Shown: positions 3,094 through 55,844 of the stretch, piece by piece | How the letters are laid out: every line of letters begins with the position of its first letter | Position numbering within the stretch: position 1 is the stretch's first letter | Origin: Escherichia coli | GTDB lineage: Bacteria; Pseudomonadota; Gammaproteobacteria; Enterobacterales; Enterobacteriaceae | NCBI RefSeq assembly: GCF_001677475.2 | Contig: NZ_CP015229.1 | DNA: 64,000 nucleotides | Direction: 5' to 3' (one strand) | Position numbers and translations under genes: made by a program | Notes under the pieces: generated by a model | Told to the model about the DNA's origin: nothing | The model's database searches: none | What the model saw: the letters and a program-made list of their open reading frames with translations, nothing else

Positions 3094-3191
3094 TACCACC
3101 ACGAATATTTAATTAGTTCACTTTCTTTTAATTATGGCGCGATGCGTCAGGGGATTGCTCGCGCCTGAATCTGATATACGGGATATAAAAA

Positions 3192-3734: not shown

Positions 3735-3909
3735 GTCAACTGGCTTTGTCCTGCTGGTTGGCACCTGCGGGAATGATGCCTGCGATGCCATTCCGGTAAC
3801 GGAAAAAATCTGGCCCACAGAGCAGGCATGTATGCAGGTGATGGAGCGCATACAAAAACGTTATCCCAGTGAAATCTTTTATTGCGAAGAGGTATTACGA
3901 AATGAATAA
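3727..3909 (+). CDS. small hypothetical protein
   Basis: 60 aa from ATG 3727, overlapping previous stop. Confidence 0.4.
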   Translation: MIKSTGFVLLVGTCGNDACDAIPVTEKIWPTEQACMQVMERIQKRYPSEIFYCEEVLRNE

Positions 3910-4228
3910 ACCAGAGAATAAAGAAATGAAATTCACACCAGTTGATATTGATGGCGTCATGGCTAATTTAAAGATGCTGGAACGTATGCACGATATCGTT
4001 AAATATGGTATTGAGCATGACCTCACCGCCAGAGAAGTCCGGAGCATTATTAACCGTGAAATGAACCAGGTGGAAGCTGCCGTGGCGCTACAAAATGAAG
4101 CAGCCCGCGAGGAATACATTCGTCGCAGGCTGGGACTATCAAATAAAGATATTCTTACGGATGCTCAGATGGCTGAGGCTTTTGATATTCATCAGAATCT
4201 TGGTCTAACAAACGGATGGTATCAGTGA
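3902..4228 (+). CDS. hypothetical early-region protein
   Basis: 108 aa from ATG 3902 with GAGG RBS. Confidence 0.5.
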   Translation: MNKPENKEMKFTPVDIDGVMANLKMLERMHDIVKYGIEHDLTAREVRSIINREMNQVEAAVALQNEAAREEYIRRRLGLSNKDILTDAQMAEAFDIHQNLGLTNGWYQ

Positions 4229-4421
4229 TTAGCTGTGATATTTGCAGAATGGGATTATTCGTTGTTCTCAATGCCGGAGCCTCTGCCGCTCCGCTTGCTG
4301 CGGCTTCGAGGATCGTTTTGCCTTCCTCTGCGGTAATCAGCCCCTTTCTGACAAGGAGTATCAGCAACCTTGAAGCAATGACATACCCTGCAACATCATA
4401 AGGCTGTTCACTGTTTTTCAT
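4155..4421 (-). CDS. small convergent ORF in early region (88 aa), unknown function
   Basis: Minus-strand ATG at 4421 with AGGA RBS about 9 nt upstream; opposite to all surrounding Mu genes; overlaps 3' end of 3902..4228. Confidence 0.4.
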   Translation of the reverse strand: MKNSEQPYDVAGYVIASRLLILLVRKGLITAEEGKTILEAAASGAAEAPALRTTNNPILQISQLITDTIRLLDQDSDEYQKPQPSEHP

Positions 4422-4494
4422 AAAAAGTTTCCTCTGTTTAGTGAGTGGATTCTGGCGGTGTTGCCGCACCGCCCCCTTTTCTGGAGGTACGATA

Positions 4495-5046
4495 ATGAAT
4501 CGCACATCCCTGATTAAATTAATTCATGTCGCCCGTCGTGATCTACAACTCGACGATGACACTTACCGCGCCTTTCTGGTGCAGTGCACAGGCAAGACCA
4601 GCTGCCGCGAGCTGTCCGTTGCACAACTGGAACGTGTGCTCGATGCCATGAAAGAGTGCGGTTTTAAAAAGCAGAAAAAACATCCCCGCCGTCGCTTTAA
4701 GGGGCATGTCACACCGCGCGAGAAGATTTATAAAATCTGGCAGCAGATGTTTCAGGATGGCTTTATCGCTGATGGCAGCGATGTCGCGCTGGACAAATAC
4801 GTTGCACGCCTGACGGCCAGACGTAATGGCGGTCAGGGGGTTTCCACGCTGGCCTGGTGTCACGGGGAATCGTTGCAGGTTGTGCTCGAAACGCTCAAGC
4901 AGTGGCACATGCGCTGCATCCGGGAAGCCTTTGCCCGACATGGTGTGCCGTTACCTGCAAGCCCATCCGGGCGGGAACTACGCGGATATGATGCACTGAC
5001 CAGTGCATATGCCCGCGCACGAAACAGCGGGAGAATTGCTGTATGA
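4495..5046 (+). CDS. gemA: GemA-like protein (Mu gp16 family)
   Basis: 183 aa; GGAGG RBS; position before mor. Confidence 0.75.
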   Translation: MNRTSLIKLIHVARRDLQLDDDTYRAFLVQCTGKTSCRELSVAQLERVLDAMKECGFKKQKKHPRRRFKGHVTPREKIYKIWQQMFQDGFIADGSDVALDKYVARLTARRNGGQGVSTLAWCHGESLQVVLETLKQWHMRCIREAFARHGVPLPASPSGRELRGYDALTSAYARARNSGRIAV

Positions 5047-5492
5047 AACAGATGAAAGAGCAGGATTTATTCGAAGACCTTCGGGACGACAGCGTTCTGG
5101 AATATCTTCATGATTACCAGGAAAACACCGCTTATCCGGCGTTACTTTCTGAACTGAACGCACTGCTGCGTAAAGAGCTGGCCCGGATTGGCGCAGACCC
5201 TGCTCATTCCCTTGAGCTGGTTGTGGCGATTTGTCGCCATATCGGCGGGATGCAGGTTTATGTTCCGAGGGGGAATATTCTGGAGAATCTTGTCCGGGAT
5301 ATGCGTATCTGGCGTGATTTTAACGGTCATAATATTCCTGAACTGGTTCAGCGTTACGGGGTGACGTATAAAACCGTCTACAAGGCCATCAAACGGATGC
5401 GACGTCTGGAGCGCAATAAATACCAGCCGGATTTGTTTTACCCCTCCCCGAACCTGCCTCACCCCGTTCGTCGTCCACCACGACGCCCTTAA
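5043..5492 (+). CDS. mor: Mor-like middle operon regulator
   Basis: 149 aa; ATG overlaps gemA stop; ...GGMQVYVPRG...YGVTYKTVYKAIKRMRRL resembles Mu Mor with longer C-terminus. Confidence 0.8.
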   Translation: MKQMKEQDLFEDLRDDSVLEYLHDYQENTAYPALLSELNALLRKELARIGADPAHSLELVVAICRHIGGMQVYVPRGNILENLVRDMRIWRDFNGHNIPELVQRYGVTYKTVYKAIKRMRRLERNKYQPDLFYPSPNLPHPVRRPPRRP

Positions 5493-5498
5493 TCAATG

Positions 5499-5522
5499 AA
5501 GCCGGTAAATCCGGCTTTTTTT
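5499..5522 (+). terminator. rho-independent terminator-like hairpin (AAGCCGG-TAAAT-CCGGCTT plus T7)
   Basis: 7-bp stem, 5-nt loop, run of 7 T; 7 nt after mor stop; identical copy at 13234-13257. Confidence 0.55.
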
Positions 5523-5577
5523 ATGCCTCCGGCACCATGAAGCAGACCACGTTTAAATCTGCTTCACAGGTGCTTTT

Positions 5578-6174
5578 ATGGAAAATCAAAAATTCTCCCC
5601 GGCCTTTGAACATGCGCTGAATTTCATTCTGCGTCCCGATATCGAAGGCGTCTATGCCAATGACCCCACTGACCGTGGCGGTGAAACCAAATACGGCATT
5701 TCTGACCGCCGCGACGGTGTGACTGACGGCAAAACCGATGTCAACGGCGACGGCAAACCGGATACCCGCATCAGGGATTTAACCCGCGAACAGGTTGCTC
5801 AGATTTACTGGCGCGATTACTGGCTGCCTGCCGGATGTGACCAGTGGCCTGATGGCGTGGCGATGTTTGTGTTCGATGCGGCGGTTCAGCATGGCGTTAA
5901 AAAAGCTATCAGGATTTTGCAGGAAGCCGCGGATGTGGATGCTGACGGCATCATCGGCCCCCGTACCCGTAAGGCCGTGAGCCTGTCCACCCCGGACTGG
6001 CTGCTGGCCCGCTGCATTGTCCGTCGTTCCCGCTTTTATGCCGACATCATCAAGTCCAAACCCGCCCAGGGCAAATACCTGAACGGCTGGTTTAACCGCA
6101 TGGAAAAGCTGACCGACGCCTGTCTGGAAATCATCGATACCCCTCCAGGCATCATGTCCGCCACGCGGGGGTGA
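5578..6174 (+). CDS. endolysin, GH108-like N-terminal domain plus peptidoglycan-binding domain
   Basis: 198 aa; motif EGVYANDPTDRGGETKYGIS typical of GH108 muramidases. Confidence 0.8.
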   Translation: MENQKFSPAFEHALNFILRPDIEGVYANDPTDRGGETKYGISDRRDGVTDGKTDVNGDGKPDTRIRDLTREQVAQIYWRDYWLPAGCDQWPDGVAMFVFDAAVQHGVKKAIRILQEAADVDADGIIGPRTRKAVSLSTPDWLLARCIVRRSRFYADIIKSKPAQGKYLNGWFNRMEKLTDACLEIIDTPPGIMSATRG

Positions 6175-6175
6175 T

Positions 6176-6427
6176 ATGGGCAAAGGCTGGGATGCCTCTC
6201 TGAAAGCCGGGCGGCGCGACCGCCTGCGTCAGGAGGTTCTGCACCGCATGGCCGGAGGTCCGCCCCCGAAACCGCTGGACTATACCGGCCATGACGGCAC
6301 ACACGCCAGCTACTACATGCGTGGCTGGAACTCCGTGGATACACGGGACATTTTCTGGCAGTGCCAGAAGTACAGGGAAAAATTCAATGTGGAAAAAGGT
6401 TATGAACAAAATTTTAAAACTGTGTGA
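6176..6427 (+). CDS. hypothetical protein in lysis region
   Basis: 83 aa; ATG 2 nt after endolysin stop. Confidence 0.45.
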   Translation: MGKGWDASLKAGRRDRLRQEVLHRMAGGPPPKPLDYTGHDGTHASYYMRGWNSVDTRDIFWQCQKYREKFNVEKGYEQNFKTV

Positions 6428-6812
6428 CTGGCTGATTTGTTCCCGACTGATGAGAACCCCATGGCCGCTGGCCGGACTGACGCTCTGTATGTTCATCATC
6501 AGCATGTTATGTGGCTGGCGATCGTTCGTGTTGATGTTGTTGTCCTTTGCCGGGGTGGTGTTGTTTTCATACAGCGCAAGCCTCGGGAATGTGCCATTTC
6601 GCCTGCTGCCTGAGGTCCGTTACCGGGCTTTTGGTCGCCACATCATCGTGTGGTCATGGGTGGTCTGGGCGCTGGGATATTTCTGCTGCGTCTTCAGCAC
6701 GCTGATGATGATGTCACCGGCACACCCGGTGTTCTGGCTGTGTGGTGGCGGTTGCGGCGCTCTGCTCTGTCTTCAGCGTTATCTGTATGGAGGTTTCCCG
6801 TGGATCCGTTAA
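6387..6812 (+). CDS. multi-pass membrane protein, possible holin-like
   Basis: 141 aa, several hydrophobic segments, Cys-rich; next to endolysin. Confidence 0.45.
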   Translation: MWKKVMNKILKLCDWLICSRLMRTPWPLAGLTLCMFIISMLCGWRSFVLMLLSFAGVVLFSYSASLGNVPFRLLPEVRYRAFGRHIIVWSWVVWALGYFCCVFSTLMMMSPAHPVFWLCGGGCGALLCLQRYLYGGFPWIR

Positions 6813-7408
6813 CCCTTTCAGGCATCGCCTCCGTTCTGCTGAAAGCCGGGCCGGGGCTGATTCGTTCCGTCGGGCGCTGGTTTGGTGGCGGTACATCTGC
6901 CGCCGCTGACTCGGTGGCCGGTATGGTGGAAAGCGTCCGGGAAAGCCTGCCGGTGGCTGAACAGCAGCGCGTTCTGGAACAGAAGATGGCGATGTTACCA
7001 CCGGAACAACAGATACAACTGGAAACCCTGAAAATTCAGCTGCAACAACTGGAGGTGGAGCGGCAGAAGCTGGTGCTGGCTGACCAGCAGGCCGCACACC
7101 ACGAACAGCAGGAAACCATCCGCAATGGTGACAACGCCACGGACAGCTATGTGCGCCAGACGCGCCCGCTGCTGGCCCGCCTTTCCTGTTACAGCGGTCT
7201 GGCCTATGTGCTGTTGCTCTCCTGCGGCCAGATTGCCGGAGCCGTTGCCGGTGCCAGAGGTATCACGCTGCATATGCCAACACCGGACTGGGATATCACG
7301 CTGATGTTGCTTACCCCTGCGCTGGGCTATCTCGGCGTGCGAACCCTTGACGGCTTTGCCCGTTACAGCAAATCAAGCCGTCACAAAATGTCTGCGGGGC
7401 TGAAATGA
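6800..7408 (+). CDS. coiled-coil membrane protein (lysis or morphogenesis associated)
   Basis: GTG 6800 after GGAGG RBS; coiled coil QQIQLETLKIQLQQLEVERQKL and C-terminal hydrophobic segments; start uncertain. Confidence 0.45.
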   Translation: MDPLTLSGIASVLLKAGPGLIRSVGRWFGGGTSAAADSVAGMVESVRESLPVAEQQRVLEQKMAMLPPEQQIQLETLKIQLQQLEVERQKLVLADQQAAHHEQQETIRNGDNATDSYVRQTRPLLARLSCYSGLAYVLLLSCGQIAGAVAGARGITLHMPTPDWDITLMLLTPALGYLGVRTLDGFARYSKSSRHKMSAGLK

Positions 7409-7632
7409 CCGATGAAATCGACCGCATCAGTGAAGTGGTTCTGAACGAGCGTCAGTGCGTCGTTAAAGCCTGGCAGACGCGGACAAAAGAAGCGCCCCAC
7501 AGTCGGGGCTTCTGCAATGACTGCGGGAACGTTATTCCGGCACAGCGCCTTGCGGCGCTGCCGGATGTGGTGACCTGTATTGACTGCCAGCAGATGCGTG
7601 AGCGCAGGAGGAAGACATGTCCTGGGAAGTGA
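7405..7632 (+). CDS. TraR/DksA-family C4 zinc-finger protein
   Basis: 75 aa; CNDCGN...(17 aa)...CIDCQ. Confidence 0.75.
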   Translation: MTDEIDRISEVVLNERQCVVKAWQTRTKEAPHSRGFCNDCGNVIPAQRLAALPDVVTCIDCQQMRERRRKTCPGK

Positions 7633-7922
7633 TCCGGGCCAACTGGCCCATTTTATGGGCGCTGTTGATGACAGCGATAAATTTGCTTCAGCTGATTCTG
7701 GCAAAGACTTACGTCAAACGCGAAGAGTTTGATTCGCTGCGTTCCCGTGTGTCGGTGATGGAAGGTCTGGTGAATCAGCTCCCCGACCGCAATGAATTTC
7801 ACCGCCTGCAACTGGATATCAGCAACCTGCGGGGCGAAATCCGGGAACTGGGGCCATCCATACGCCAGGTTTCCCGCATCAGTGATTTGTTATTAGAGAA
7901 CGAGTTAAAGGTAAAAAATTAA
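7617..7922 (+). CDS. membrane-anchored coiled-coil protein (DUF2730-like)
   Basis: 101 aa; GGAGG RBS; N-terminal TM then heptad-rich region. Confidence 0.55.
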   Translation: MSWEVIRANWPILWALLMTAINLLQLILAKTYVKREEFDSLRSRVSVMEGLVNQLPDRNEFHRLQLDISNLRGEIRELGPSIRQVSRISDLLLENELKVKN

Positions 7923-8215
7923 TGGCGATGAAAGAGATCCTCACTGAAGACCGTCGTCTGGTGTTGCTGCGTTCCCTGCTGGACTGTGGCGACAGCGCGA
8001 ATGAATCCGTGTTGCAGACCTGCCTTCAGGCTTATGGTCATAAGGTATCCCGTGATGTGGTGCGCACCCAGCTTGCATGGCTTCGCGAGCAGGGGTTGGT
8101 TCGTCTGTCTGATGTGGGCGGCTGTTACGTGGCTGAAATCACCGGCAGCGGCGAGGATGTGGCAAACGGCCTGTCCAGCGTTCCGGGCGTTAAAAAACCC
8201 CGTGCGAGGGGCTGA
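7922..8215 (+). CDS. hypothetical protein, possible winged-helix regulator
   Basis: 97 aa; ATG at previous stop. Confidence 0.5.
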   Translation: MAMKEILTEDRRLVLLRSLLDCGDSANESVLQTCLQAYGHKVSRDVVRTQLAWLREQGLVRLSDVGGCYVAEITGSGEDVANGLSSVPGVKKPRARG

Positions 8216-8217
8216 GC

Positions 8218-8517
8218 ATGGCCCGAAAACTGAAGCCGTTAAGTCGCGGAGAACGGGCCGTCGTGCGGCAACTGGCGTACTGCCTTGTGCTGGCAGATAT
8301 TGAGCAAAACGCCATTGTCCGTGCATACGAACAACAGACCGGAAAGCCCTGGAGCCCGGATGCACCGGACAGCCCCATGAAACGCTTTCTGCGGTCATCA
8401 CCGGCATGTGCGCGGCTGTGGAAGCTGCTGGGTAAGGATATCCGGTCCGTTCGCGAAGAAATATACGCCGGTCTGAAAACACCGGGAACTGAAGACGGGG
8501 GCCGTCGTGAACCGTAA
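8218..8517 (+). CDS. hypothetical protein
   Basis: 99 aa; GAGGGG RBS. Confidence 0.5.
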   Translation: MARKLKPLSRGERAVVRQLAYCLVLADIEQNAIVRAYEQQTGKPWSPDAPDSPMKRFLRSSPACARLWKLLGKDIRSVREEIYAGLKTPGTEDGGRREP

Positions 8518-8654
8518 AAAGAATCCGATAAGTAAAGCGTCCCGTGATGAACTCCGCCGTCTGGCGCACAACCTGACATGGCGGGAAATCCAGAGCGGCG
8601 CGCTGAAATCTGCATACGAAAGTTTACAGCGTAGTGAGCAACAGGAGGGCAAAC

Positions 8655-9236
8655 ATGGAAAATGAACAACGCCCCACCCGTGGCCGTCTTTCCAAAGTGG
8701 ATTTACTCCCGGACAGCATCCGGGAGCAGTTGCATCAGATGCTGCGGGAAAAGCGGCACACGCAGGAAGAAATCCGCGAAGCCATCAACGCCCTGATTGA
8801 CGAACACAACCTGCCGGAAGAGATGCAGTTAAGCCGGACGGGTTTAAACCGTTATGCCAGCCGCATGGAAAAAGTCGGGGCCAAAATCCGCGCCTCCCGC
8901 GAAATGGCCGAAGTCTGGGCGGCAAAGCTGGGTTCCGCGCCAACATCAGACGTCGGCAGGCTGCTGATGGAGTTTGTAAAAACGCTGGCCTTTGAAACGT
9001 CCATGTCGATGGCAGAAGACGACAAACCTGTAGCACCAAAGGCGCTGGGGCAACTGGCGCTGGTTGCCCAGCGTCTGGAAGCGGCAGCCATGACCAGCCA
9101 TAAACGCGAGAAAGCGATCCGCGATGCGTTTGCACAGGAGATGGCTGAGAAAACCGAAGAGCTGGTCAGAACGGGTGGTCTGTCAGGCGGTGCGGCTGAC
9201 ACCATCAAACGAGACATTCTGGGGATTAGCGCATGA
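8655..9236 (+). CDS. terminase small subunit-like protein (Mu gp27 family)
   Basis: 193 aa from ATG 8655 with AGGAGG RBS; directly upstream of large terminase. Confidence 0.7.
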   Translation: MENEQRPTRGRLSKVDLLPDSIREQLHQMLREKRHTQEEIREAINALIDEHNLPEEMQLSRTGLNRYASRMEKVGAKIRASREMAEVWAAKLGSAPTSDVGRLLMEFVKTLAFETSMSMAEDDKPVAPKALGQLALVAQRLEAAAMTSHKREKAIRDAFAQEMAEKTEELVRTGGLSGGAADTIKRDILGISA

Positions 9237-13231: not shown

Positions 13232-13257
13232 TGAAGCCGGTAAATCCGGCTTTTTTT
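13232..13257 (+). terminator. second identical copy of the 26-bp hairpin plus T7 element
   Basis: TGAAGCCGGTAAATCCGGCTTTTTTT identical to 5497-5522; 50 nt upstream of I start. Confidence 0.55.
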
Positions 13258-13306
13258 CTGCCTTCCGCATACTGACCGTCGGTAACCCCAGACGACGGAG
13301 ACTGAC

Positions 13307-26472: not shown

Positions 26473-27468
26473 ATGTTTCACGTGGACAATAATACGGGTG
26501 TGCCTGTTATGCCGCCTGTTGCGGCTGAATTAAGCAAAACAACGCTTTATTTCACCGAAGGCGGGAACGGTATTCCACCCACTTATCCAGGACCAGACTG
26601 GTTTAATATTATTCAGTCTGAATTACTGAAAATTCTCGAAGAAGCCGGAATAACGCCGGATAAAGCAGATACCGGTCAGATAATGGCAGCCCTGAAAAAA
26701 CAGTTTATTACGAACAGTGGTTCAGCCGGAGCTATTGCCGGATTAACCGGTGAGAATAATACGTTCCCGTATTTTACCGGCGAAGACACAATGGCATTAA
26801 CGCCGCTCAGTGCGTTTGTGCGCAGTATTCTTGGAAAAAACAGCGGCAGTGAGTTTATTAAAGCAATTGGCCTGTCACCGGACACCCTTTTATCATCAGG
26901 GCGAATAACAGCATTAAGCGGTGGCTCACAGGGAGCAACCGGACTTCAGATGTACGAAGCGTATAACAACGGCTATCCCATTCCATACGGCAATGTGCTG
27001 CATCTGAAGGGGGGGACAGCGTCAGGTGAAGGCGAATTACTGATTGGCTGGAGTGGCACAAGTGGTGCACATGCCCCGGTTTACATCCGCTCAAGACGAG
27101 ACAATGACGAGGCGGAATGGTCTGAATGGGCACAGGTTTTTACCTCAAAAGACAGTTTCAACGCAGCAACTGCTACAAAACTCCAGACAGCCCGCAAGAT
27201 TAATAATGTGGCATTTGATGGCACCAGCGATATCACCATCAGCAGTACCGATTCTGGTGCTGTGCGTGATTTCAGATACACCAGCGAAGTGTTTCACAAT
27301 CCCGGAGGTAACGAAATCACCTGGACGTTTCGCGCGCCCTCAGGTTGCGTTTTGTCAGGTATTTACGTTCAGGAAACGGGAAGAAGTTCTTCGGATAACA
27401 TCGGCGGCGTGTATTACAAACAAACTCAGGTTTATATCAATGGCTCATGGCGCACCGTATCCGGTTAA
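26473..27468 (+). CDS. tail fibre protein (short)
   Basis: 331 aa; GGAG RBS; followed by chaperone-like gene. Confidence 0.7.
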   Translation: MFHVDNNTGVPVMPPVAAELSKTTLYFTEGGNGIPPTYPGPDWFNIIQSELLKILEEAGITPDKADTGQIMAALKKQFITNSGSAGAIAGLTGENNTFPYFTGEDTMALTPLSAFVRSILGKNSGSEFIKAIGLSPDTLLSSGRITALSGGSQGATGLQMYEAYNNGYPIPYGNVLHLKGGTASGEGELLIGWSGTSGAHAPVYIRSRRDNDEAEWSEWAQVFTSKDSFNAATATKLQTARKINNVAFDGTSDITISSTDSGAVRDFRYTSEVFHNPGGNEITWTFRAPSGCVLSGIYVQETGRSSSDNIGGVYYKQTQVYINGSWRTVSG

Positions 27469-27482
27469 TTAAGGAGAAAATA

Positions 27483-28013
27483 ATGGAACTCAGAAACGTC
27501 ACGCGTTATTACCCGGAAGAAATGCCTTATGGTGAAAACATTCAGTATTTCCGCAGTGAAGACGGACAGGATTTTTATGAATCACTGGATAAATTCACGA
27601 AGAAATACAAATTGTGTATTCACCCTGACACAGGCGTGATTTTTTCGATGGCGGAAGATGTGTCCCGTCTTTATCCGGCTGGTTTCACTATTGTGGAAGT
27701 GGACGAACTGCCGGAGGGTTTTGGCATTGAAGCCTGCTGGTATTACCTGGATGGCGAAGTGCTGCCGGTTCCGGTTGATTATTCGCAACTGGCAGAAAAG
27801 CAACGCCAGCGTCTTCTGGCTGAAGCCAGGGACATCACCTCCGACTGGCGAACCGAGCTGGATCTGGGCACCATCAGCGACGATGACAAAGCCCGTCTTA
27901 CGCAGTGGATGGCATATATCAAAGCGGTGAAGGCGCTGGATTTAAGCACCGTTACTGATGAAGCCTCCTTTAATGCCATCAACTGGCCGGAGCGTCCCGA
28001 TGCCGCAGCTTAA
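27483..28013 (+). CDS. tail fibre assembly chaperone
   Basis: 176 aa; AAGGAG RBS. Confidence 0.7.
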   Translation: MELRNVTRYYPEEMPYGENIQYFRSEDGQDFYESLDKFTKKYKLCIHPDTGVIFSMAEDVSRLYPAGFTIVEVDELPEGFGIEACWYYLDGEVLPVPVDYSQLAEKQRQRLLAEARDITSDWRTELDLGTISDDDKARLTQWMAYIKAVKALDLSTVTDEASFNAINWPERPDAAA

Positions 28014-30249
28014 AGGTGTGATTAAAACGCCCACGGGAGAAGCGCTGGGCGGCGCAACCATTACTCTGACCTCCCTGCACAACCGTGCAGGGATCCTGAA
28101 AGGTGTTTTCAGCCACGTAACCACACAGAGCGGGGAGTACGACTTTTCCGTTCAGCCGGGTGTGTACAGCGTTCGCCTGACACAAAGCGAACAGCGCCTT
28201 TCAGAAATCGGTGTCATTCGTGTTTATGAAGATTCACAGGACGGTTCACTGAATGATTTTCTGGGTGCAACCGATATTGACCTGCGCCCGGAAGCCCTGA
28301 AGAAATTCGAAGAACTGGCGCAACAGGCGCAGCAAAGCGCGGAAGAAGCCGGAGAGCACGCGGACGCGGCTGAACAGGCCCGCCAGGATACAGAAACCCT
28401 CGCCGGGGAAATACGGCAGGATGCAGAAGAAATTGCAGGCAATGTGCAGAAAGCTGAAGAGCTTGCCTCTGAAACCAGTCAGAATGCAGCCCGCGCAGAG
28501 CAGGCCGTTAAGGATGCCGACACGATAGTCCGGAAAGCGGTCGATAAACTTGCTGATGCTGCAACGCTGACCGGCGAGGCAAAAGCCAGTGCCAAAGCTG
28601 CCGCACAAAGCGAACAGAATGCGGAAAATCACGCTGATAATGCAGCACAAAGCGCACAGCAGACCGCACAGGATGTGCAGGCAACGGTAACAGCCCGCAG
28701 TGATGCGGAACGTTTTGCGGGTGAGGCAGAAAACAGCGCACAGTCATCAGGCACAGCGCGGGACGAATCAGTCGATGCCGCCGAACGCGCCCGCCTTTAT
28801 CATAATGCCGCATCATCAGCTGCAACCAGCGCGGAAAATGCAGCAAATGCTGCACTCGGGCATGAAAACAGCGCCGCCGAATACGCCCGACAGGCTAAAG
28901 CCAGCCAGGATGCAGGTGCAGACAATGCGCAGGAAGCGAAACAGTACAGGGATGAGGCGCAGCAGATAGTTGATGACCTGAATGCAACAAATGCCTCCAC
29001 GACAGAAAAAGGTCTGGTGCAACTGTGTAGTGATACGGACAACGACAGCGAGGAACTGGCTGCCACGCCAAAGGCTGTCAAAACCGTCATGGACGAGACG
29101 AAAACAAAAGCGCCACTGGACAGCCCGGCCTTCACCGGCACCCCAACCACCCCAACCCCACCGGATGATGCCGCCGGTCTGGAAGCAGCGAACGCAGCGT
29201 TTGTGCGCAAACTGCTTGCTGCGCTGGTTGGCTCATCGCCGGAAGTTCTGGACACCCTGAACGAGCTGGCAGCGGCGCTGGGCAATGACCCGAACTTTGC
29301 GACGACAATCACAAACGCGCTGGCAGGCAAACAACCGCTTAATGACGTCTTAACGGCAATCAGCGCACTGACGCAACGGGCAGATAATCTTCTGTACTTC
29401 AATACAGACGGGAATGCCTCACTGTCTCTGCTGTCAGAGAAGGGCCGCGCATTGCTGGCGCATGACACGGCTGAAGCCATGCGCACGGAGCTTGAGCTGA
29501 GCACGGCTGCGACGATGGAACCCCAGAGTGATATCCGTGACCGCACACCGGGCAGGCTGGCCCTGTCCGGGATGTATGGGTTTGGACAGGCATTCACCAG
29601 CGCCGAAGCTCTGTCATTTAACGGACAGGCTGATTTCGTTATATGGCTGCAGACAGTCACCCCGGGGCGTTATGCGGTCAGTATTGCGGACTCCTCCACG
29701 CTGCTGGTGGGCACCACGAAATTTAACGGTATCATTGATGTGATGTGGTCACCCTCTGATAACGATGGTTCAGACTCAGCGCGTAAATTCAAAACGCTGC
29801 TGTACTACAACCAGTATTACGAGGATGAGCACAGCATACATTGTATGCGTTATCGCTACAGTGGTAACAGCTGGAATGCAACATCAAGCCTTATTGTGTA
29901 TGACGGCAACTCCCTGGCATATCTGATGTCCTCAACCGCCGGTAATGGTCCGTTCTCATATTACCAATACCCGGCCGTCGGTGTGCCGATTATGGCGGTA
30001 TATCAGGGAGAAAGTTTTGGTGAAAATGCTTCTCTGGGACTCGGTGATACTGTGCCGGGTTCCCGTCTTGGTCCTCTGGCCATGAGTGCACAGGTTAGTG
30101 ATACAGGGACATACGCATCCTCACCGCAGGTTGTGATTGGCGGTGCCGGTGAATACAACTTCCCCGGTCGTTACACGGCGCTTTCGGGCCTGGGTAACAA
30201 TTATGGTACTCAGCGTGGCTTTATCGGTCTTTTTGTACGCATTGAGTAA
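28000..30249 (+). CDS. tail fibre protein (long, Ala-rich helical shaft)
   Basis: 750 aa from ATG 28000; long Ala/Glu/Gln-rich region and C-terminal receptor-binding-like region. Confidence 0.8.
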   Translation: MPQLKGVIKTPTGEALGGATITLTSLHNRAGILKGVFSHVTTQSGEYDFSVQPGVYSVRLTQSEQRLSEIGVIRVYEDSQDGSLNDFLGATDIDLRPEALKKFEELAQQAQQSAEEAGEHADAAEQARQDTETLAGEIRQDAEEIAGNVQKAEELASETSQNAARAEQAVKDADTIVRKAVDKLADAATLTGEAKASAKAAAQSEQNAENHADNAAQSAQQTAQDVQATVTARSDAERFAGEAENSAQSSGTARDESVDAAERARLYHNAASSAATSAENAANAALGHENSAAEYARQAKASQDAGADNAQEAKQYRDEAQQIVDDLNATNASTTEKGLVQLCSDTDNDSEELAATPKAVKTVMDETKTKAPLDSPAFTGTPTTPTPPDDAAGLEAANAAFVRKLLAALVGSSPEVLDTLNELAAALGNDPNFATTITNALAGKQPLNDVLTAISALTQRADNLLYFNTDGNASLSLLSEKGRALLAHDTAEAMRTELELSTAATMEPQSDIRDRTPGRLALSGMYGFGQAFTSAEALSFNGQADFVIWLQTVTPGRYAVSIADSSTLLVGTTKFNGIIDVMWSPSDNDGSDSARKFKTLLYYNQYYEDEHSIHCMRYRYSGNSWNATSSLIVYDGNSLAYLMSSTAGNGPFSYYQYPAVGVPIMAVYQGESFGENASLGLGDTVPGSRLGPLAMSAQVSDTGTYASSPQVVIGGAGEYNFPGRYTALSGLGNNYGTQRGFIGLFVRIE

Positions 30250-30263
30250 TGAGGAAATCAGGC

Positions 30264-30839
30264 ATGAAAATCAGAGCGGTGAAAGGTATCAGAAACGCAC
30301 ATTATCTTGAAAATGGTGCGGTTGACTGCGAGGTGTTATTTGAAGGTGAAACGGAGTTCGCCCTGTATACTGCCATACAGGATGATATGGCCCCGACAGG
30401 CCAGCACATCTGGCAGGAGCTGCAAAGCGGGAAATGGGGCGAAATCGCCCCGTTCACCGTCACGCCGGAACTTATTGCAGCGGCAAAGGATGCCAAAAGG
30501 CGGGAAATTGAGGCATGGCGCGACAGTCAGGAAAACGTTGAGTTTATTTTCACGTTTGATGGCCGTCGTTTTGATGGCGGAAAAACCTCGCAGTCACGCC
30601 TTGCCCCCGTGGTTGCAGCAGCGCAGGCCGGACTGCTTCCGGAGGGATTTTTCTGGACTGATGCGGATAATAACAACGTCGTACTGACCAGGGAGAAACT
30701 TATTGCGCTGAACGATGCCATGATGGTGGCCATGGTGGCGGAGGGCTTTAAAATCCACGAACGCCAGCGCGAGATGAAAGAGCAACTTTCCCTGCTGTCC
30801 ACACTGAGCGATATAAGAGCGTTAACGCCCGGTTATTAA
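30264..30839 (+). CDS. tail fibre assembly chaperone (second copy)
   Basis: 191 aa; GAGGAA RBS. Confidence 0.7.
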   Translation: MKIRAVKGIRNAHYLENGAVDCEVLFEGETEFALYTAIQDDMAPTGQHIWQELQSGKWGEIAPFTVTPELIAAAKDAKRREIEAWRDSQENVEFIFTFDGRRFDGGKTSQSRLAPVVAAAQAGLLPEGFFWTDADNNNVVLTREKLIALNDAMMVAMVAEGFKIHERQREMKEQLSLLSTLSDIRALTPGY

Positions 30840-30863
30840 GTCATCATTTTGTATAGTTTATAA

Positions 30864-30887
30864 CGATCGATACAATCGTATCGATCG
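30864..30887. promoter_or_regulatory. palindrome with two GATC sites upstream of com-mom (candidate Dam-sensitive operator)
   Basis: CGATCGATA-CAATCG-TATCGATCG, perfect 9-bp inverted repeat, GATC at 30865 and 30883. Confidence 0.5.
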
Positions 30888-30961
30888 TCAGTTTGCATCA
30901 TCTGTGATTAAATACCCTGGCCCTCAGGGCTATCGTATCTGGTTAATACACAGGTGGGATC

Positions 30962-31147
30962 ATGGATGCTGTTCGTTGTAAAAACTGCAATAAATTGCTG
31001 TTTAAAGGAAGTTTTAAGCATATAGAAATCAAATGCCCTCGTTGTAAACGTTACATTGTCATGTCGAGTGCCCGGGAGCATCCCACGGAGCTGTATTGTG
31101 GGAAAAGAGAAGAAATCACGCATCCTTACAAAACCCTGCGTTATTGA
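30962..31147 (+). CDS. com: Com zinc-finger translational activator of mom
   Basis: 61 aa; [33 protein letters not shown]...THPYKTLRY closely resembles Mu Com. Confidence 0.85.
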
Positions 31148-31793
31148 GTATGAAGGCCGTATTGTCGGCTATGGTTCAAGGGAACTGCGCGTTGAAACCA
31201 TATCCTGCTGGCTGGCCCGCACAATCATTCAGACAAAGCACTATTCCCGCCGTTTTGTGAATAACTCCTGGTTGCATCTGGGGGTATTCAGCGGACGTGA
31301 TCTGGTTGGCGTTCTCCAGTGGGGATACGCCCTTAATCCCAACTCAGGGCGTCGGGTCGTGCTGGAAACGGATAACCGGGGCTATATGGAACTGAACCGC
31401 ATGTGGTTACACGACGACATGCCCCGCAACTCTGAATCACGGGCTATCAGCTACGCACTGAAAACCATCAGGTTACTGTATCCATCAGTGGAGTGGGTTC
31501 AGTCCTTTGCAGACGAACGCTGCGGACGTGCAGGTGTTGTGTATCAGGCATCTAATTTTGATTTTATTGGTAGCCATGAAAGCACGTTCTACGAGCTGGA
31601 CGGCGAGTGGTATCACGAGATAACGATGAACGCGATTAAGCGTGGAGGACAACGAGGCGAGTATTTGCGGGCTAATAAGGAGCGGGCGGTGGTACACAAA
31701 TTTAATCAGTATCGCTACATCAGATTCCTGAACAAGCGCGCAAAAAAGCGACTAAATACTAAGCTATTCAGGATTCAGCCATACCCGAAGTGA
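31098..31793 (+). CDS. mom: Mom DNA adenine modification protein
   Basis: No in-frame ATG near 5' end; GTG 31098 (GGAG 9 nt upstream) gives 231 aa; overlaps com by 50 nt. Confidence 0.8.
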
Positions 31794-31814
31794 TCCCACG
31801 TAATGAATAAAAAA

Positions 31815-31837
31815 GCAGCGGCCAATGCCGCTGTTTT

Positions 31838-31838
<1 letters not shown>
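31815..31838 (+). terminator. rho-independent terminator after mom
   Basis: GCAGCGGC-CAAT-GCCGCTG then TTTT. Confidence 0.55.
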
Positions 31839-32244
<406 letters not shown>

Positions 32245-36112: not shown

Positions 36113-36152
36113 GAGCAGATCGTCCAACCCGATCTGGATCGAGTTAGAAAAA

Positions 36153-47659: not shown

Positions 47660-47952
47660 TATTAGATGTGTGCTGGAGGGATGATGCAGGACCAGAATGT
47701 GCGATAGAGGGAAGTCGCATTGAATTATGTGCTGTGGAGGGATCGCTGGTATCAAATATGTGTGCTGGAGGGAAAGGCAGAGAATTACATGTGCACTGGA
47801 GGGAAAAACGGATGGACAGATGTGTGCTGGAGGGAAAGTCTGGGCAAACTGCGGGGCGTCCCCCTCCAGCGCACATCAAAAACAGGAAATTGGACAAGCC
47901 TTCCCGTCAGCACACATTTTTTTAATGCAGCTTCCCTCCAGCACACACTTAT
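47660..47952. repeat. incA-like iteron array downstream of repA
   Basis: About 8-9 copies of GATGTGTGCTGGAGGGAAA-type 19-mers in both orientations. Confidence 0.7.
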
Positions 47953-48809
47953 TCGGGAAGTTTCAGCTTTGGATTGCGAGAATGGACGATTACAAAACTT
48001 TCCCGGCCTTTCTTCTCAATTGAACAGTCGAGATAGCCGATTGTTTTAAGCTGTTCTATCGCTTTCTTAATGATACGGTTTTGCTCGCCAACAGCTGACT
48101 GCAAAGCCAAGCGCTCACGGATTCGCGCGAACGATAGGGGCAACGGGTTCTGCGGAAGGCTTTCGATGAAAGTGTAAATGGCTTGTGCAGCTTCTTTCTT
48201 CGGAAGGGCACGCAAGGCGTGGTGTTGCAACAGAACGCGATAATCAAGCTGGAACAGCTCCCACAGCTTCGAATCAGCCTCCAGCTCTATCAGATCAAGG
48301 TCAGCATCAAAACGCCCGACCTTCAGCAGACCAGTCTGATAGCCGCCTTTAGCATCTTTTCCGCGCTTAAAGGCGATACCCTTGTTACGCAAGCGACCAA
48401 GTGATTCATGAATGGTTAAACGCAGTTTCGCATCCAGACGTTTTGAGGGGAAACCACAGGCTTTAGCGAATTCCTGAAACGATAACTGGATGGTGTTTGA
48501 GGACAAGCCGTATTTGCTGAACGCGTAGATGACACCGATCCACGTTTTGAAATCAGTATCCATATCGAGTCGAGGACCAGTGATTTTAATATCATCGTAA
48601 CCCTCGGCTTTAGCTATCTCCAGCTGGGAAAACGCTTTGGTGGCATCAATCTCTTTACTTTCTCCTTTGCTCTTTGATGGCTTCGGCACGAATACCCCCA
48701 AGCGCATCAACGCTACAGGCTGCACAGTGTTGTTTGAATTAACTGTTAGTTCTTTTGCCTTACTTTCAATGTCTGCGTAAAGAATATCGGAGATAAATGA
48801 TTGATTCAT
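47949..48809 (-). CDS. repA: plasmid replication initiator RepA
   Basis: 286 aa; flanked by iteron arrays; matches P1 RepA as recalled. Confidence 0.85.
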   Translation of the reverse strand: MNQSFISDILYADIESKAKELTVNSNNTVQPVALMRLGVFVPKPSKSKGESKEIDATKAFSQLEIAKAEGYDDIKITGPRLDMDTDFKTWIGVIYAFSKYGLSSNTIQLSFQEFAKACGFPSKRLDAKLRLTIHESLGRLRNKGIAFKRGKDAKGGYQTGLLKVGRFDADLDLIELEADSKLWELFQLDYRVLLQHHALRALPKKEAAQAIYTFIESLPQNPLPLSFARIRERLALQSAVGEQNRIIKKAIEQLKTIGYLDCSIEKKGRESFVIVHSRNPKLKLPE

Positions 48810-48999: not shown

Positions 49000-49090
49000 G
49001 CCTGCAACGATCAGGGATCTATATGGATCTAATTGGGATCTGTATGGACCTAATTATTGGATCTACCCAGTGGATAATGTGGATAAGTGA
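49000..49090. other. oriR-like plasmid origin core: five GATC sites plus tandem DnaA boxes
   Basis: GATC at 49009, 49016, 49026, 49037, 49060; TGTGGATAA at 49078-49086 with a second box adjacent. Confidence 0.6.
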
Positions 49091-51692: not shown

Positions 51693-52590
51693 GCACTGGA
51701 AAAACATTACTATTTATAAACTTTCTCGTGAGGCGGATCTGACCGACTTAGAAGATAAAAAGAAAATGATCCTTTTCACGCCATGCGGTAGTCAGGATAT
51801 GGCCAAGTTCGGTTTTGTATCGCCATTTGGTGATAATTCCGAAGTTATCGCTATGCATGGAAATGGTTTTATCCTTGTTGAAGCAAAGCGCGAAACAAAA
51901 ATTCTTCCCCCGCCGGTTATCCAGCGAGCTATTCAAGAAAAAATTGAAAAACTTGAGCAAGAACAAGCGCGTAAACTGAAGAAAACAGAGAAGGATTCCC
52001 TGAAAGACGAAGTTCTGCATTCTCTTCTGCCACGGGCTTTTTCAAAGTTTTCTGTTATCCAGGCGATCTACGATGGTTCAACTAAACGTATCTATATCAA
52101 TGCCAGCGCGCGGCAGGCAGAGGATATGCTCGCACTTATGCGTAAGTCTCTGGGTTCTCTTCCTGTTGTTCCCCTAAGTGTTGAAAATCCCATTGAATTA
52201 ACGCTGACCGACTGGGTACGTGATGGTAGTGCTCCACAGGGATTTCAAATGGGGGATGCGGCAGAACTTAAGGCAGTGCTTGAGGATGGCGGTATTGCCC
52301 GAGTGAAAAAGCAGGATTTGGGAAGCGATGAAATTTCCACACACCTGGAAGCTGGCAAGCTCGTCACTAAGTTGGCACTCGACTGGCAGAACCGCATTAA
52401 ATTTACACTGGACCATAACTTCAGCCTTACCAGCGTCAAATTTGCGGATGAATTGCTTGAGCAGAACTCTGATATTGATAGTGAAGATGTTGCGCAGCGA
52501 CTGGACGCAGATTTCTTCCTGTTGACCAGTGAAATTTCGTGCCTGGTTGATGCTCTGGTAAATGCCCTTGGCGGAGAGGCTAAGCAGTGA
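51685..52590 (+). CDS. RdgC-like recombination-associated protein (hrdC position)
   Basis: 301 aa from ATG 51685; N-terminus [15 protein letters not shown] like RdgC MLWFKNLMVYRL. Confidence 0.7.
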
Positions 52591-55500
52591 AAGAGCTGTG
52601 CTATGGATCTGTTTGCAGTGGAATTGAAGCCGCGAGTATTGCCTGGGAACCGTTGGGTATGCGTCCGGCGTGGTTTGCTGAAATCGAGCCTTTTCCATCT
52701 GCCGTTCTTGCGCTCCGCTGGCCCCATGTCGCCAACCTTGGCGACATGACAAAACTTGCCAAAAAAGTCTTGGCTGGGGAAATCGAATCCCCTGACGTGC
52801 TCGTCGGGGGAACACCATGTTTTACCGCGGGGCATATGGTTCTTTGTAAAAATGGTTATAAACCAATAGAAGATGTTTGCCCTGGCGATTACGTAGTCAG
52901 TCATCTCGGGCGGTTACAACAAGTAAAAAGAGTTGGTTCAAAAATAGCTAATACGGGGTTACTTAATGCCGTTGGGCAGCCTTTAGGTATAAGAACAACC
53001 AATGACCATCCCTTCCTGGCTGTTCGGTGGAAAGCCCAAAACACCCGGAAAAATGGCACATATTTTAAGAGAGAGTTGTTGTCTGAACCGGAATGGCGAG
53101 CAGCATGTGATATGCCGGGATATCAATGGTGCGCTCTAACTAATTTCAATATTGCATCTCCAGATATTTGTTCTCGGTTCTTGTCTGAAGAACAGGCTAT
53201 GTATCTTGCGGGCGCTTATGTTGGCGATGGATATATTAGGAGATGGAGAGGTAAATCTAAGAAGGCGGTTGTTTTTGGCATAAATTGCCAGAAATTGAGA
53301 AAGTTTCATTGCCGCATACCAGAAAACATATTTTCCGTGGCAAGCGAAATCCGAGGGAGCATCAAAGTAACCTTGAATGATACGTGTTATGCCAATTGGC
53401 TTAATGAACATTTTGGCGAGTTAAGCCATGCTAAGCGTATCCCTGCATGGGTGATGTCGCATCCATTGCGTCATGTGTTTTTACAAGGCTATCTTGATAC
53501 TGATGGGACACCAAGTGGTAAAGCGGGATTTAGAATTAATAGTGTTAGTCCTGCGCTTGCTTGGGGCGTTGCGGGGTTGTCACAGACTTGTGGTTATGTT
53601 TCTTCGGTCAGCTTTATTGAAGTTGAGCCCAAAAAAGTGATCGAGGATCGCGTGGTAAATCAACGGAATTATTATCAGGTAACAATCTGCCCGCAGAAAT
53701 TGTCACGTAAATCAAGATTGGCTCATGGAATGCTTTTACGAACAGTCAAAGAGTTTAAATCGGTAGGCCTAGATACTGTATACAACATAGAAGTCGAAGG
53801 TGATCATTCCTATATCCTCAATGGTGCGGTGGTCCATAACTGTCAGGCATTCAGTATCGCGGGCTTACGTGGTGGGCTTGATGATGAACGCGGCGCGCTA
53901 ACTTTGAAGTATGTGGAGCTTGCAAATGCAATTGACGACAAACGGTCTGAGTCCTTCCTCAAACCGACAGTTATCGTCTGGGAAAATGTCCCAGGAGTCC
54001 TGTCATCGGCAGATAACGCCTTCGGATGTTTCCTTGCCGGATTGGCTGGAGAAGATGCGCCATTTGAACCAGGTGATCGACCTGAATCAGGAAAAAGTAA
54101 CGCGTTCTGGCGGTGGGATGGCAAAACCGGTTGCCATGCTCCAAAGTGGCCGCAGTGTGGTTGTATTTATGGACCGCAGCGAAAGGTGGCCTGGAGAATC
54201 CTTGATGCCCAATACTTCGGAGTGGCACAACGACGCCGACGCGTGTTTGTTGTCGCAAGTGCTCGAACAGACCTCGATCCCGCAACGGTACTTTTTGAGT
54301 TCGAAGGCGTGCGCCGGAATATTGCGCCGAGCCGAAAAAAGAAGGAAATCGCTTCCGCCATTATTGCAAATGGCGCTGCAATCAGTGGCGAAAGCCTAAA
54401 TCCATGCCTACACGCTGACATGCCACCCGGTATGAAATCGACGAAAGCCGTAAACGCTTTCAGGATGGCGGCATTTGGGGAATATATTGACGATGAAACC
54501 GCATCGACAGTAAAGGCAAGAGATTTTAAAGATGCCACTGACCTTGCCGTTTTTAGCAGCACAGGAGCAGGTTTTTGGTCAGAAGGGCATGGTACATTGC
54601 GGGCACGTGAGCAAGAAAGCCATGAGCATCTTGTTACATTGGCTTTTCCTGAGCGTATGAGCGGTACACAACATGCTGCAACTAAGAATACTTCACCATC
54701 TCTAATGGCTAAAAATCCAACAGCTGTTTGCTATGAAGTAAGAAACGCAGAAGTAGCTGTCCGCCGTCTTACCCCTGTCGAATGTGAAAGGCTGCAAGGT
54801 TTTCCTGATGGGCATACGTTGATCCCGACGGAAAAGCGTAAAAAAGTTAATTCAGATGAACTGGCATATCTTCGCAATCACTATCCAGATTTAAGCGAAG
54901 AAGAGGCCGCGATGCTTGCAGCTGACGGACCGCGTTACAAAGCGATCGGCAATAGTATGGCAATACCAGTAATGCGCTGGATTGGCGATCGGATTACTAA
55001 GGCCGTATGTCGGCAGAAAGAAGGAAGTGAAACAAAAGAGCGAAAAGTTAAACCAGCGGCAGAATTCGAACGGTCCATATTCAAATGGGCTGGTGGAAAA
55101 TTTGGTGTTCTGGAACAAATCTTTCGCTATTTGCCAGAAGGGAAGCGCCTGATTGAACCTTTCGTTGGTGGCGGAGCTGTCTTCATGAATGCCGGATACC
55201 AGGAAAATCTGCTAAATGATGTGAATGCTGACCTGATTAACTTTTACAAGACTCTGCAACGCGAGGCGCATTCACTTATCACTCTGGCACATCGTTTCTT
55301 CCAGGACTACAACACACAGGAAGGATACCTGGCAGTACGGAATGCGTTTAACAAACAAGTCTATGATGATTTACATCGCGCAGCGGCGTTTTTGTTCCTG
55401 AACCGACATTGTTTTAACGGATTGACGCGTTACAACCAGGCCGGTGAGTTCAATGTCGGTTACGGGAAGTATAAAACTCCGTATTTCCCATTACAGGAGA

Positions 55501-55844
55501 TGGAAGCCTTCCTCGGTGCGGAAGGGCGGTCTGAGTTTGTATGCGGTGATTTTGCAGCGGTGATTGAAGCTGCCGGAGAAGGAGATGTCATCTTTTGCGA
55601 TCCGCCGTATGAACCGCTTCCAAATACAGAGGGATTCACGAACTATTCCGGTCATGACTTTAAGTTTGAAGAGCAAAAACGCCTGGTGTCTCTGTTGACG
55701 GATGCTCATCGTCGAGGTGCAAAGGTTCTCATTACTAACAGTGGCGCGCCAAACATCAGAGAGCTTTATCATGACAGTGGCTTCAGAGTGGAACCTCTTT
55801 TTGCCAGACGTTCTGTGTCTTGTAAGGGGACACTCGAGGTGTAG
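52587..55844 (+). CDS. bifunctional DNA methyltransferase: C5-cytosine domain (interrupted by intein) fused to Dam-like N6-adenine domain
   Basis: 1085 aa; C5 motifs GGTP/CQAFS, ENV, QRRRR, RLQGFP, GNS; Dam motifs [10 protein letters not shown] and DPPY. Confidence 0.8.
52818..53840 (+). other. intein with LAGLIDADG homing-endonuclease domain inside the methyltransferase
   Basis: 341 aa from CFTAGHMV to GAVVHN followed by +1 Cys; TTNDH block; [11 protein letters not shown] and [11 protein letters not shown]. Confidence 0.7.

Follow-up and report, generated by a model that had tools for sequence, protein, structure and literature searches.

A com-mom operon of the phage Mu family with a variant control region in a Mu-like prophage of Escherichia coli

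The com-mom genes and their prophage

The window analysed here is a stretch of 64,000 nucleotides of Escherichia coli DNA (NZ_CP015229.1). It carries a com gene and a mom gene close to the end of a Mu-like prophage, and the genes and their right-hand border are made up of the following features.

30952-30957, + strand: Shine-Dalgarno sequence of com, AGGTGG
30962-31147, + strand: com, ATG start, 61 amino acids, with a CxxC...CxxC zinc ribbon
31098-31793, + strand: mom, GTG start, 231 amino acids
31812-31837, + strand: intrinsic terminator AAAGCAGCGGC-CAAT-GCCGCTGTTTT, 3' of mom
31837-31919: right end of the prophage, with three TATCTTGAA(T/A)(A/G)A repeats and two TGCGCGCTT repeats

Com is a small zinc-ribbon protein with four cysteines, encoded directly 5' of mom. 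It matches the Pfam family Zn_ribbon_Com (PF10122, E=2e-7, over the gathering score) and is 69% identical at the protein level to Com of Mu, and the four cysteines of both CxxC pairs align. The open mom frame extends from TTG 31056 to 31793 and matches the Pfam family Mom (PF25680, E=1e-75). Its product shows 97% protein identity to Mom of Mu and matches the solved Mom structure, PDB 8bv8, with E=2e-154. At the level of DNA, the identity to com-mom of Mu, SfMu, D108 and further related phages is 88-89% over 30972-31818 (blastn), with 88.7-89% for Mu. A first-pass annotation of this DNA had placed a com-mom cassette at 30841-31147, and the Pfam matches of both proteins together with the orthology to Mu bear this out.

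Mom is a GNAT-fold enzyme and its product, N6-carbamoylmethyl-adenine, blocks many restriction enzymes. It moves glycine from Gly-tRNA(Gly) onto the N6 of adenine in double-stranded DNA, and the residues W48, H58, Y59, R111, S124, D149, R151, Y159 and W181 are important for it (PMC13219725). These numbers belong to a protein of 241 amino acids and are ten higher than those of the 231-residue product, in which the corresponding W38, H48, Y49, R101, S114, D139, R141, Y149 and W171 are invariant. The catalytic residues R111, S124, D149 and R151 are among them (R101, S114, D139 and R141 here). The retention of these residues and the near-identity to the Mu protein agree well with the earlier proposal that Mom is an anti-restriction DNA modification, which this copy would also carry out. 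The biochemistry and regulation of Mu mom are taken from PMC13219725, PMC7261163 and PMC3378877.

Positions 1-31919 of the window are the right-hand ~32 kb of the Mu-like prophage, which encodes MuB, Gam, gp11, GemA, Mor, a GH108 endolysin, gp27 and head and tail genes in the order of Mu. The early region is ~83% identical to Mu/SfMu and the morphogenesis region is without a close match in the phage collection. The gin gene and the G segment are absent from the prophage. It ends at 31919, 126 bp past the mom stop, and com-mom is thus placed at its right end, as in operons of the Mu type; homology to P1 begins at 31920 and related E. coli prophages cease to match at 31919/31920. Two related E. 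coli prophages, of ETEC1732 and SA53-3, share this layout.

Judged from its sequence, the com-mom pair is a true copy of the com-mom of phage Mu, near the end of a Mu-like prophage. The cassette is a known system, a further member of the family with a variant control region, and not a new kind of system. What sets it apart is the presence of two GATC sites and not three, a perfect palindrome, the absence of the C operator and of the C gene, and a codon other than ATG at the place of the upstream ATG of Mu.

The com/mom junction and the start of mom

The end of com overlaps the beginning of mom, and two RNA hairpins are predicted in the 3' part of com.

31068-31081, + strand: Com-target RNA hairpin, 4-bp stem GUGC/GCAU, hexaloop CCGGGA with a CC-N2-3-GAG motif
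31082-31102, + strand: translation-inhibition hairpin, 7-bp stem CCCACGG/UUGUGGG

It had been proposed in the first-pass annotation that mom lacks an ATG near its 5' end and begins at GTG 31098, 50 nt inside com, to give a product of 231 amino acids. The coordinates agree with this proposal: with a start at GTG 31098-31100, mom and com share exactly 50 nt, the earliest in-frame ATG is codon 97 of the 231-aa product, and the Mu record AF083977 annotates the same GTG, the same GGAG and the same 50-nt overlap. The GGAG described earlier is present at 31087-31090, while its distance of 9 nt from the GTG was approximate, as the spacer to GTG 31098 is 7 nt. A second in-frame GTG, overlooked at that time, lies at 31068, ten codons 5' of GTG 31098, and gives a form of 241 amino acids. 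Mu has an ATG at this place, and in the Mu mom frame stop codons are followed by this ATG ten codons 5' of the GTG.

A start further 5', at GTG 31068 (241 aa) or at TTG 31056 (245 aa), has to be weighed. Mu and most relatives carry an in-frame ATG at the position of 31068. PGAP starts mom at this ATG if there is one (241 aa, as in ETEC1732 and SA53-3) and otherwise at the GTG (as in RM9088). In addition, the 241-aa protein of Mu is the 'full-length' form of PMC13219725, where the 241-aa and delta-10 forms are both active. However, no Shine-Dalgarno sequence was found before GTG 31068 or TTG 31056, and GGAG stands 7 nt ahead of 31098. The upstream in-frame codon is ATG, GTG or GCG across the variants, GCG being found in a lineage with 75-79% Mom identity, and it is therefore not conserved as a start. 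In contrast, none of 12 sequence variants, which reach down to 75% Mom identity (L117 lineage), departs from GUG in the hairpin. It has been reported that the GUG start codon of Mom sits in the stem of the translation-inhibition hairpin (PMC6483171). For these reasons GTG 31098 is the best-supported start of mom, and initiation at either upstream codon appears improbable. This is of consequence for annotation, since pipelines switch between 231-aa and 241-aa models of Mom according to an upstream ATG that is not conserved.

In the predicted structure the ribosome-binding signals of mom are sequestered within the 3' end of com. GGAG 31087-31090 lies half in the stem and half in the loop of the inhibitory hairpin, and GUG 31098-31100 falls within its 3' arm. 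Directly 5' of it lies the putative Com-target hairpin with the CC-N2-3-GAG motif in its loop. It has been shown by SELEX and SHAPE that the target of Com is CC-N2-3-GAG in the loop of the first hairpin and that the GA is essential (PMC6483171). When the 45 nt of 31064-31108 and the matching segment of Mu were folded, the same dot-bracket structure with two hairpins was predicted for both. Folds of 61 and 86 nt over the junction gave other minimum-energy structures that were not consistent with each other and had non-significant z-scores, so that the two-hairpin model is backed by the 45-nt fold, the centroid and the comparative data. Searching 30700-32000 against Rfam (evalue mode) gave two chance-level matches only, and neither the Com hairpin nor the inhibitory hairpin has a family there.

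The comparative data come from the 12 variants. The loop of the Com hairpin reads C-NNN-GA in them, with a free middle; the stem of the inhibitory hairpin is invariant, and its loop varies in sequence and length. The closing pair of the Com hairpin covaries, being A-U in Mu, G.U in the window and G-C in a distant lineage (positions 5:18 of the 45-mer). The pair that extends the inhibitory stem covaries between U-A and C-G (positions 18:40). The covariation rests on these two positions, as the stems are invariant among close relatives. Both covarying pairs use nucleotide 31081, and because they share it, the two helices would compete for it. From this three-way covariation, U31081 may switch from the one hairpin to the other. 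Such competition fits the published idea that binding of Com destabilises the inhibitory hairpin, the final step of which we infer.

The translational gate can thus be pictured as follows. The GGAG and GUG of mom would be held in the hairpin 31082-31102. Com, which would be translated first off the same mRNA, would bind the hairpin 31068-31081 through the CC-N2-3-GAG loop, and the inhibitory hairpin would open. As U31081 could pair in either helix, stabilising one would weaken the other. The covariation at U31081 provides in this way a testable model of how Com opens the inhibitory hairpin. The Com-dependent design suggested in the first-pass annotation is backed by the homology to Mu and by the comparative data, and would probably operate here.

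The control region upstream of com

The gene that precedes com is a DUF4376 tail-fibre assembly gene (30249-30839). It has the same orientation, and the intergenic region of 122 nt (30840-30961) contains the following.

30853-30889: 37-bp site resembling the OxyR consensus, ATAGTTTATAACGAT-N7-ATCGTATCGATCGTC, placed as is the Dam/OxyR region of Mu Pmom
30863-30888: perfect palindrome ACGATCGATAC-AATC-GTATCGATCGT, with 11-bp arms at 30863-30873 and 30878-30888 and a 4-nt centre
30865-30868 and 30883-30886: GATC1 and GATC2, inside the arms of the palindrome
30906-30929: conserved block GATTAAATACCCTGGCCCTCAGGGC, likened to the right half of the C box of the Mu type, with a GCCC-N3-GGGC dyad
30931-30936, + strand: candidate -10 hexamer TATCGT, aligned to the Mu -10 TAAGAT and +1, of low confidence

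A perfect 9-bp inverted repeat with two GATC sites had been noted 5' of com. Both of its arms, CGATCGATA (30864-30872) and TATCGATCG (30879-30887), are present, and the repeat extends to arms of 11 bp. A count of perfect inverted repeats in the window (arms of 11 bp or more, loop of 10 nt or less) gave 6 loci, and a mean of 0.2 was obtained with first-order Markov resamples. As a class such repeats are non-random, and most of the 6 loci resemble terminators. One more GATC of the cassette lies at 30958, just 5' of the com ATG, and is not kept in relatives.

The first-pass annotation had also likened the palindrome to the Dam-sensitive OxyR site of Mu Pmom. The OxyR consensus is ATAGnTnnnAnCTAT-N7-ATAGnTnnnAnCTAT (PMC2909390). 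The 37-bp site scores 14/20 against it and is the joint top of the 64-kb window, but resamples give ~1.9 such positions per 64 kb; the score alone is not significant genome-wide, and the case for an OxyR site would rest on its position and on the homology to Mu. The first half-site matches at 9/10 (background frequency 2e-5) and the second at 5/10. The Mu site at -99 to -63, read in the same register, reaches 12/20. The 37-mer begins at a conserved ATAG in both phages, with GATC1 and GATC2 at motif positions 13 and 31 in the window as in Mu. The blastn match stops short of the promoter. In a MAFFT alignment the window sequence ATAGTTTATAACGATCGATACAATCGTATCGATCGT is aligned with ATAGAAAACGACGATCGAATCAATTAAATCGATCGG of Mu, and the palindrome aligns base for base with Mu ACGATCGAATCAATTAAATCGATCGG, which carries GATC sites 1 and 2 with the same 18-bp spacing. 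The likeness first suggested therefore holds in sequence and register, and the locus has a putative cluster of Dam sites in an OxyR-type region 5' of the promoter, with two of the three sites of Mu at identical positions. The GATCs of Mu are at -87, -69 and -56; the third is outside the 37-mer and is missing here. These positions are counted from the Mu +1 (L001:1169), which was derived from a primer statement in PMC3378877. According to that paper, Pmom is under the control of Dam and OxyR upstream of the mom start site, and has a poor pair of -35 and -10 elements, suboptimal spacing, a T-stretch and a dependence on the activator C (PMC3378877).

Two other readings of the palindrome were considered. 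It could act as an RNA hairpin at the 3' end of the tail-fibre operon, as a terminator, a stabiliser or a processing site. It begins 24 nt past the stop of the DUF4376 gene, and as RNA it would form an 11-bp hairpin of -16 kcal/mol (z = -4.0, with none of 200 shuffles as good). In 17 distinct class-B sequences including the window (class B, the promoter class of the window, is described below) the centre varies and the arms do not, which is the pattern of a stem-loop too, and shorter hairpins are possible at this place in Mu and in a third lineage. On the other hand, the sequence after the hairpin (CAGUUUGCAUC) has no U-tract, and the hairpin was not called by the terminator scan, so that its use as an intrinsic terminator was rejected. 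The conserved ATAG half-site (9/10) lies outside the hairpin. Since CGATCG and ATCGAT, of which the arms are made, are self-complementary, an inverted repeat is the automatic outcome of two copies of a Dam/OxyR-type motif. Moreover, the Dam and OxyR control of Mu acts upstream of the mom start site (PMC3378877), where the region aligns. A role as an RNA element is thus highly improbable.

The palindrome could alternatively be the operator of another dimeric regulator, of phage or host, with its OxyR likeness incidental. The repeat is far more perfect than an OxyR site requires, and its dyad (centre at 30875.5) and the OxyR 37-mer (centre at 30871) are offset by 4.5 bp. Matches to the OxyR consensus at this level arise by chance about twice per 64 kb, and in a phage without C another factor must control the promoter. 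Against this, the prophage has a single copy of the palindrome, which is therefore no shared operator. In Mu these positions are occupied by GATC sites 1 and 2 (-87 and -69), in the region where PMC3378877 puts the Dam and OxyR sites, and the arms are kept between phages whose other regulators differ. A different regulator is hence an unlikely explanation, and the palindrome is best read as part of a Dam/OxyR element of the Mu type.

The footprint limits on Mu are reportedly about -104 to -59 for OxyR and -57 to -28 for C. From these limits and from the register of the consensus we take the aligned stretch of Mu to be the OxyR/Dam element itself. By analogy, the site 30853-30889 would bind OxyR when both GATCs are un- or hemimethylated, and full Dam methylation would exclude OxyR and permit expression. 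Together with the Com switch, expression would be gated twice because Mom is toxic.

Related loci were collected from viral contigs (n=43) and sorted into two main classes, with a few divergent loci of the Mu type with 85-87% Mom identity (L039-L041) kept apart.

Class A (Mu type): three GATCs; imperfect repeat with 7-bp arms; TTAT-N6-ATAA present; T6 run present
Class B (window type): two GATCs; invariant arms ACGATCGATA/TATCGATCGT with a variable centre; no C operator and no T6 run
Other block of class B: GATTAAATACC(C)... together with the GCCC-N3-GGGC dyad

The distance from the OxyR-like site to com is 11-12 bp shorter in class B than in class A. In both classes conservation starts a few bases 5' of the ATAG even when the upstream gene differs, and the control region therefore appears to travel with the cassette. 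A third lineage has AATCGATCG-N7-CGATCGATT 5' of com, which is also a palindrome with two GATCs. Pairs of CGATCG that bear GATC would thus be a general hallmark of com-mom operons. Class B was found in 48 of 5426 complete E. coli genomes (~1%). The exact version of the window was found among these genomes only in strain RM9088, where mom is truncated by insertion sequences. To our knowledge the control region of class B has not been studied before.

No TTAT-N6-ATAA dyad, which as the C operator lies over the -35 region, was found in 30890-30935. Nor was a C gene found among the prophage ORFs at 319-9236, where the sole Mor-family ORF encodes a homolog of Mor. This only Mor-family protein of the prophage is 63% identical to Mor of Mu and 32% to C. 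In the relatives ETEC1732 and SA53-3, one Mor gene and no C was found. An ORF of 165 amino acids 3' of mor in ETEC1732 was considered as an analog of C and rejected, as it has a signal-peptide-like N-terminus, no Pfam match and no homolog in the window. No sigma-70-like promoter was called by a scan of 30780-31950. The stretch where a -10 is expected is the least conserved part of the intergenic region in class B, and the hand-picked hexamers TATCGT, TATCTG and GTTAAT were dropped as they are not conserved across the class. The block at 30906-30929 is conserved across class-B sequences and may be an activator or promoter element. It occurs once in the prophage, and no second copy of it and no C-box-like motif was found before the other late operons. 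The prophage has near-copies of the Pm dyad AAGCCGGTAAATCCGGCTTTTTTT as sites for Mor, before the lysis genes at 5501 and before the head genes at 13236; upstream of com no Pm-like dyad was found.

Without C and its operator, late transcription of com-mom would come from elsewhere. It could come from a weak promoter at ~30931-30945 with another factor, possibly the Mor homolog of the phage, or from read-through out of the Mor-driven late tail operon, or from both. In the extreme case the cassette has no promoter of its own, com and mom are the last genes of a Mor-driven late transcript, and the Mu-like sequence upstream is a relic. Such a reading accounts for the lack of a called sigma-70-like promoter, for the variable -10 segment and for the absent C operator. 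It agrees also with the position of com, which follows the tail-fibre assembly gene in the same orientation after 122 nt. Furthermore, the stretch from the Pm-like site at 13236 to com yielded no call of a + strand terminator with a stem longer than 5 pairs; the calls with 5 pairs lie in coding sequence and are about as frequent as in shuffles. However, the OxyR-like site and the block 30906-30929 vary hardly or not at all in 17 variants, unlike the non-coding bases around them, and they do so in three contexts with different upstream genes; this argues for selection on the site and the block. In class A and class B alike, the boundary of the cassette falls where the OxyR motif starts. The absence of any promoter of its own is therefore a serious possibility, yet not the one we favour.

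A retained control region is the reading we prefer. Within it, we tentatively suggest that class B is a C-independent form, belonging to a family of Mor-only Mu-like prophages, in which the C operator, the third GATC and the T-run were lost, the OxyR/Dam module with its two GATCs was sharpened to a perfect palindrome, and the Com switch was kept; this remains a conjecture. If true, a toxic gene otherwise carried along by read-through from the late tail operon would have the OxyR/Dam palindrome as its sole dedicated checkpoint at transcription. Such a checkpoint might act as a methylation-sensitive roadblock or through a factor at 30906-30929.

Considered as a whole, the locus is probably a functional-looking ortholog of Mu com-mom, predicted to be gated at translation by the Com switch and at transcription by the OxyR/Dam site. 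The palindrome, its GATC sites, the buried GTG start and the Com-dependent design all find support in the homology to Mu and in the comparative data.

Comparison with known systems

The com-mom operon of Mu is transcribed from Pmom under the control of Dam, OxyR, C, Fis and Com, and is found also in D108 and SfMu. The cassette described here resembles these in gene order, in the 50-nt overlap of com and mom, in the GUG and GGAG within an inhibitory hairpin and in a Com-target hairpin with a CC-N2-3-GAG loop. Upstream it shares the ATAG...CGATCG...ATCGATCG block with GATC1 and GATC2 18 bp apart, and downstream a terminator after mom and a distance of ~120 bp to the right end of the prophage. 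It differs from Mu in having two GATCs only, as the site at -56 is lost, and in a perfect palindrome whose arms are lengthened to 11 bp. Neither the TTAT-N6-ATAA operator nor the T6 run is present, and there is ~12 bp less between the OxyR-like site and com. Unlike Mu, the phage is without a C gene, the cassette is preceded by a DUF4376 tail-fibre assembly gene and not by gin and the G segment, and the upstream in-frame ATG of Mu is a GTG here.

In Mu, Mor drives only Pm and thereby C, and C drives the late promoters including Pmom. The prophage is like Mu in having a Mor that is 63% identical to that of Mu and two near-copies of the dyad AAGCCGG-N5-CCGGCTTTTTTT, at 5501 and 13236. In contrast to Mu, these Pm-like sites stand directly before the lysis and head operons, and there is no such dyad 5' of com-mom.

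The two GATCs of the present case, in a candidate site that matches the OxyR consensus, recall agn43 (flu) of E. coli and gtr of Salmonella/P22. In agn43 and gtr the GATCs are embedded in OxyR half-sites, and methylation and binding of OxyR are mutually exclusive (PMC2909390). In gtr, three half-sites provide alternative activating and repressing positions. However, agn43 and gtr phase-vary and have three or four GATCs, and phase variation is not indicated for the cassette here; it is not established even for mom of Mu (PMC2909390).

Mom is a textbook case of an anti-restriction hypermodification and its control circuit is among the most layered for a single phage gene, to which the present copy adds no new principle. 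What the comparison shows is that the circuit is modular. The Com switch and the OxyR-type module with two GATCs accompany the cassette into phages that lack C, and the C operator does not. The variant would thus allow one to test which layers suffice to silence a toxic gene.

Insertion into a P1-like phage-plasmid

Homology to P1 (97.6%) begins exactly at window position 31920, which corresponds approximately to coordinate 46293 of P1 (NC_005856), and on the P1 side this point falls within pmgC, a morphogenetic gene. One phage has therefore been disrupted by another, transposable phage. The host replicon of the Mu-like prophage is a P1/P7-like phage-plasmid. Its part of the window includes simC, c4/icd/ant, repA/par and dmt, together with two dense clusters of GATC sites.

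Boundary and GATC clusters of the P1-like part
31919/31920: boundary between Mu-like prophage and P1-like part (31920-64000)
36118-36137: three GATCs in 20 bp
47949-48809, minus strand: 286-aa ORF, RepA-sized, beside the five-GATC cluster
49009-49060: five GATCs in 52 bp, adjoining the 286-aa ORF

The five-GATC cluster is presumably the Dam-dependent oriR of P1. Elsewhere in the P1-like part, the long ORF at 52587-55844 holds a second match to the 37-bp OxyR consensus (54698-54734, 14/20). Chance would be expected to yield a match of this level.

mom in RM9088 and the annotation of com and mom

Among E. coli genomes, only RM9088 (L046) matches the control region upstream of com at 100%. In that genome, ISEc12 and IS66 elements have shortened mom (L046 3759-4178) to about 140 codons, a loss that could reflect counter-selection against a toxic gene. 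In the RefSeq annotations of L046 and the related loci L047 and L122, the Mom length of 231 or 241 aa tracks the presence of a non-conserved upstream ATG, and the product name that PGAP gives to Com, 'DNA-binding transcriptional regulator', is at odds with the literature, where Com is an RNA-binding translational activator.

Prophage architecture compared with Mu

Features of the prophage
5501-5525: near-identical copy 1 of the dyad and terminator of Pm, the middle promoter of Mu, AAGCCGGTAAATCCGGCTTTTTTT, preceding the lysis operon
13236-13260: near-identical copy 2, AAGCCGGTAAATCCGGCTTTTTTT, preceding the head operon
26473-30839: two tandem pairs of tail fibre and assembly protein
27447-28013: Caudo_TAP of pair 1 (fibre of 331 aa)
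30249-30839: DUF4376 of pair 2 (fibre of 763 aa)
31837, 31872, 31894: three direct repeats, TATCTTGAA(T/A)(A/G)A
31857, 31909: two repeats, TGCGCGCTT

Both types of repeat at the right end (31837-31919) are candidate transposase end-binding sites with sequences other than those of Mu R1-R3, and the prophage terminates in ...GCGCGCTTTA, not CA. In place of the invertible G segment of Mu stand the two tail-fibre/assembly pairs, and no invertase gene is present. The phage with both Pm-like copies, a pair also found in E. coli ETEC1732, has the middle-promoter activator Mor and lacks the late-gene activator C. This combination suggests a two-tier cascade, in which early expression would be followed by Mor-driven late expression, whereas the cascade of Mu has three tiers.
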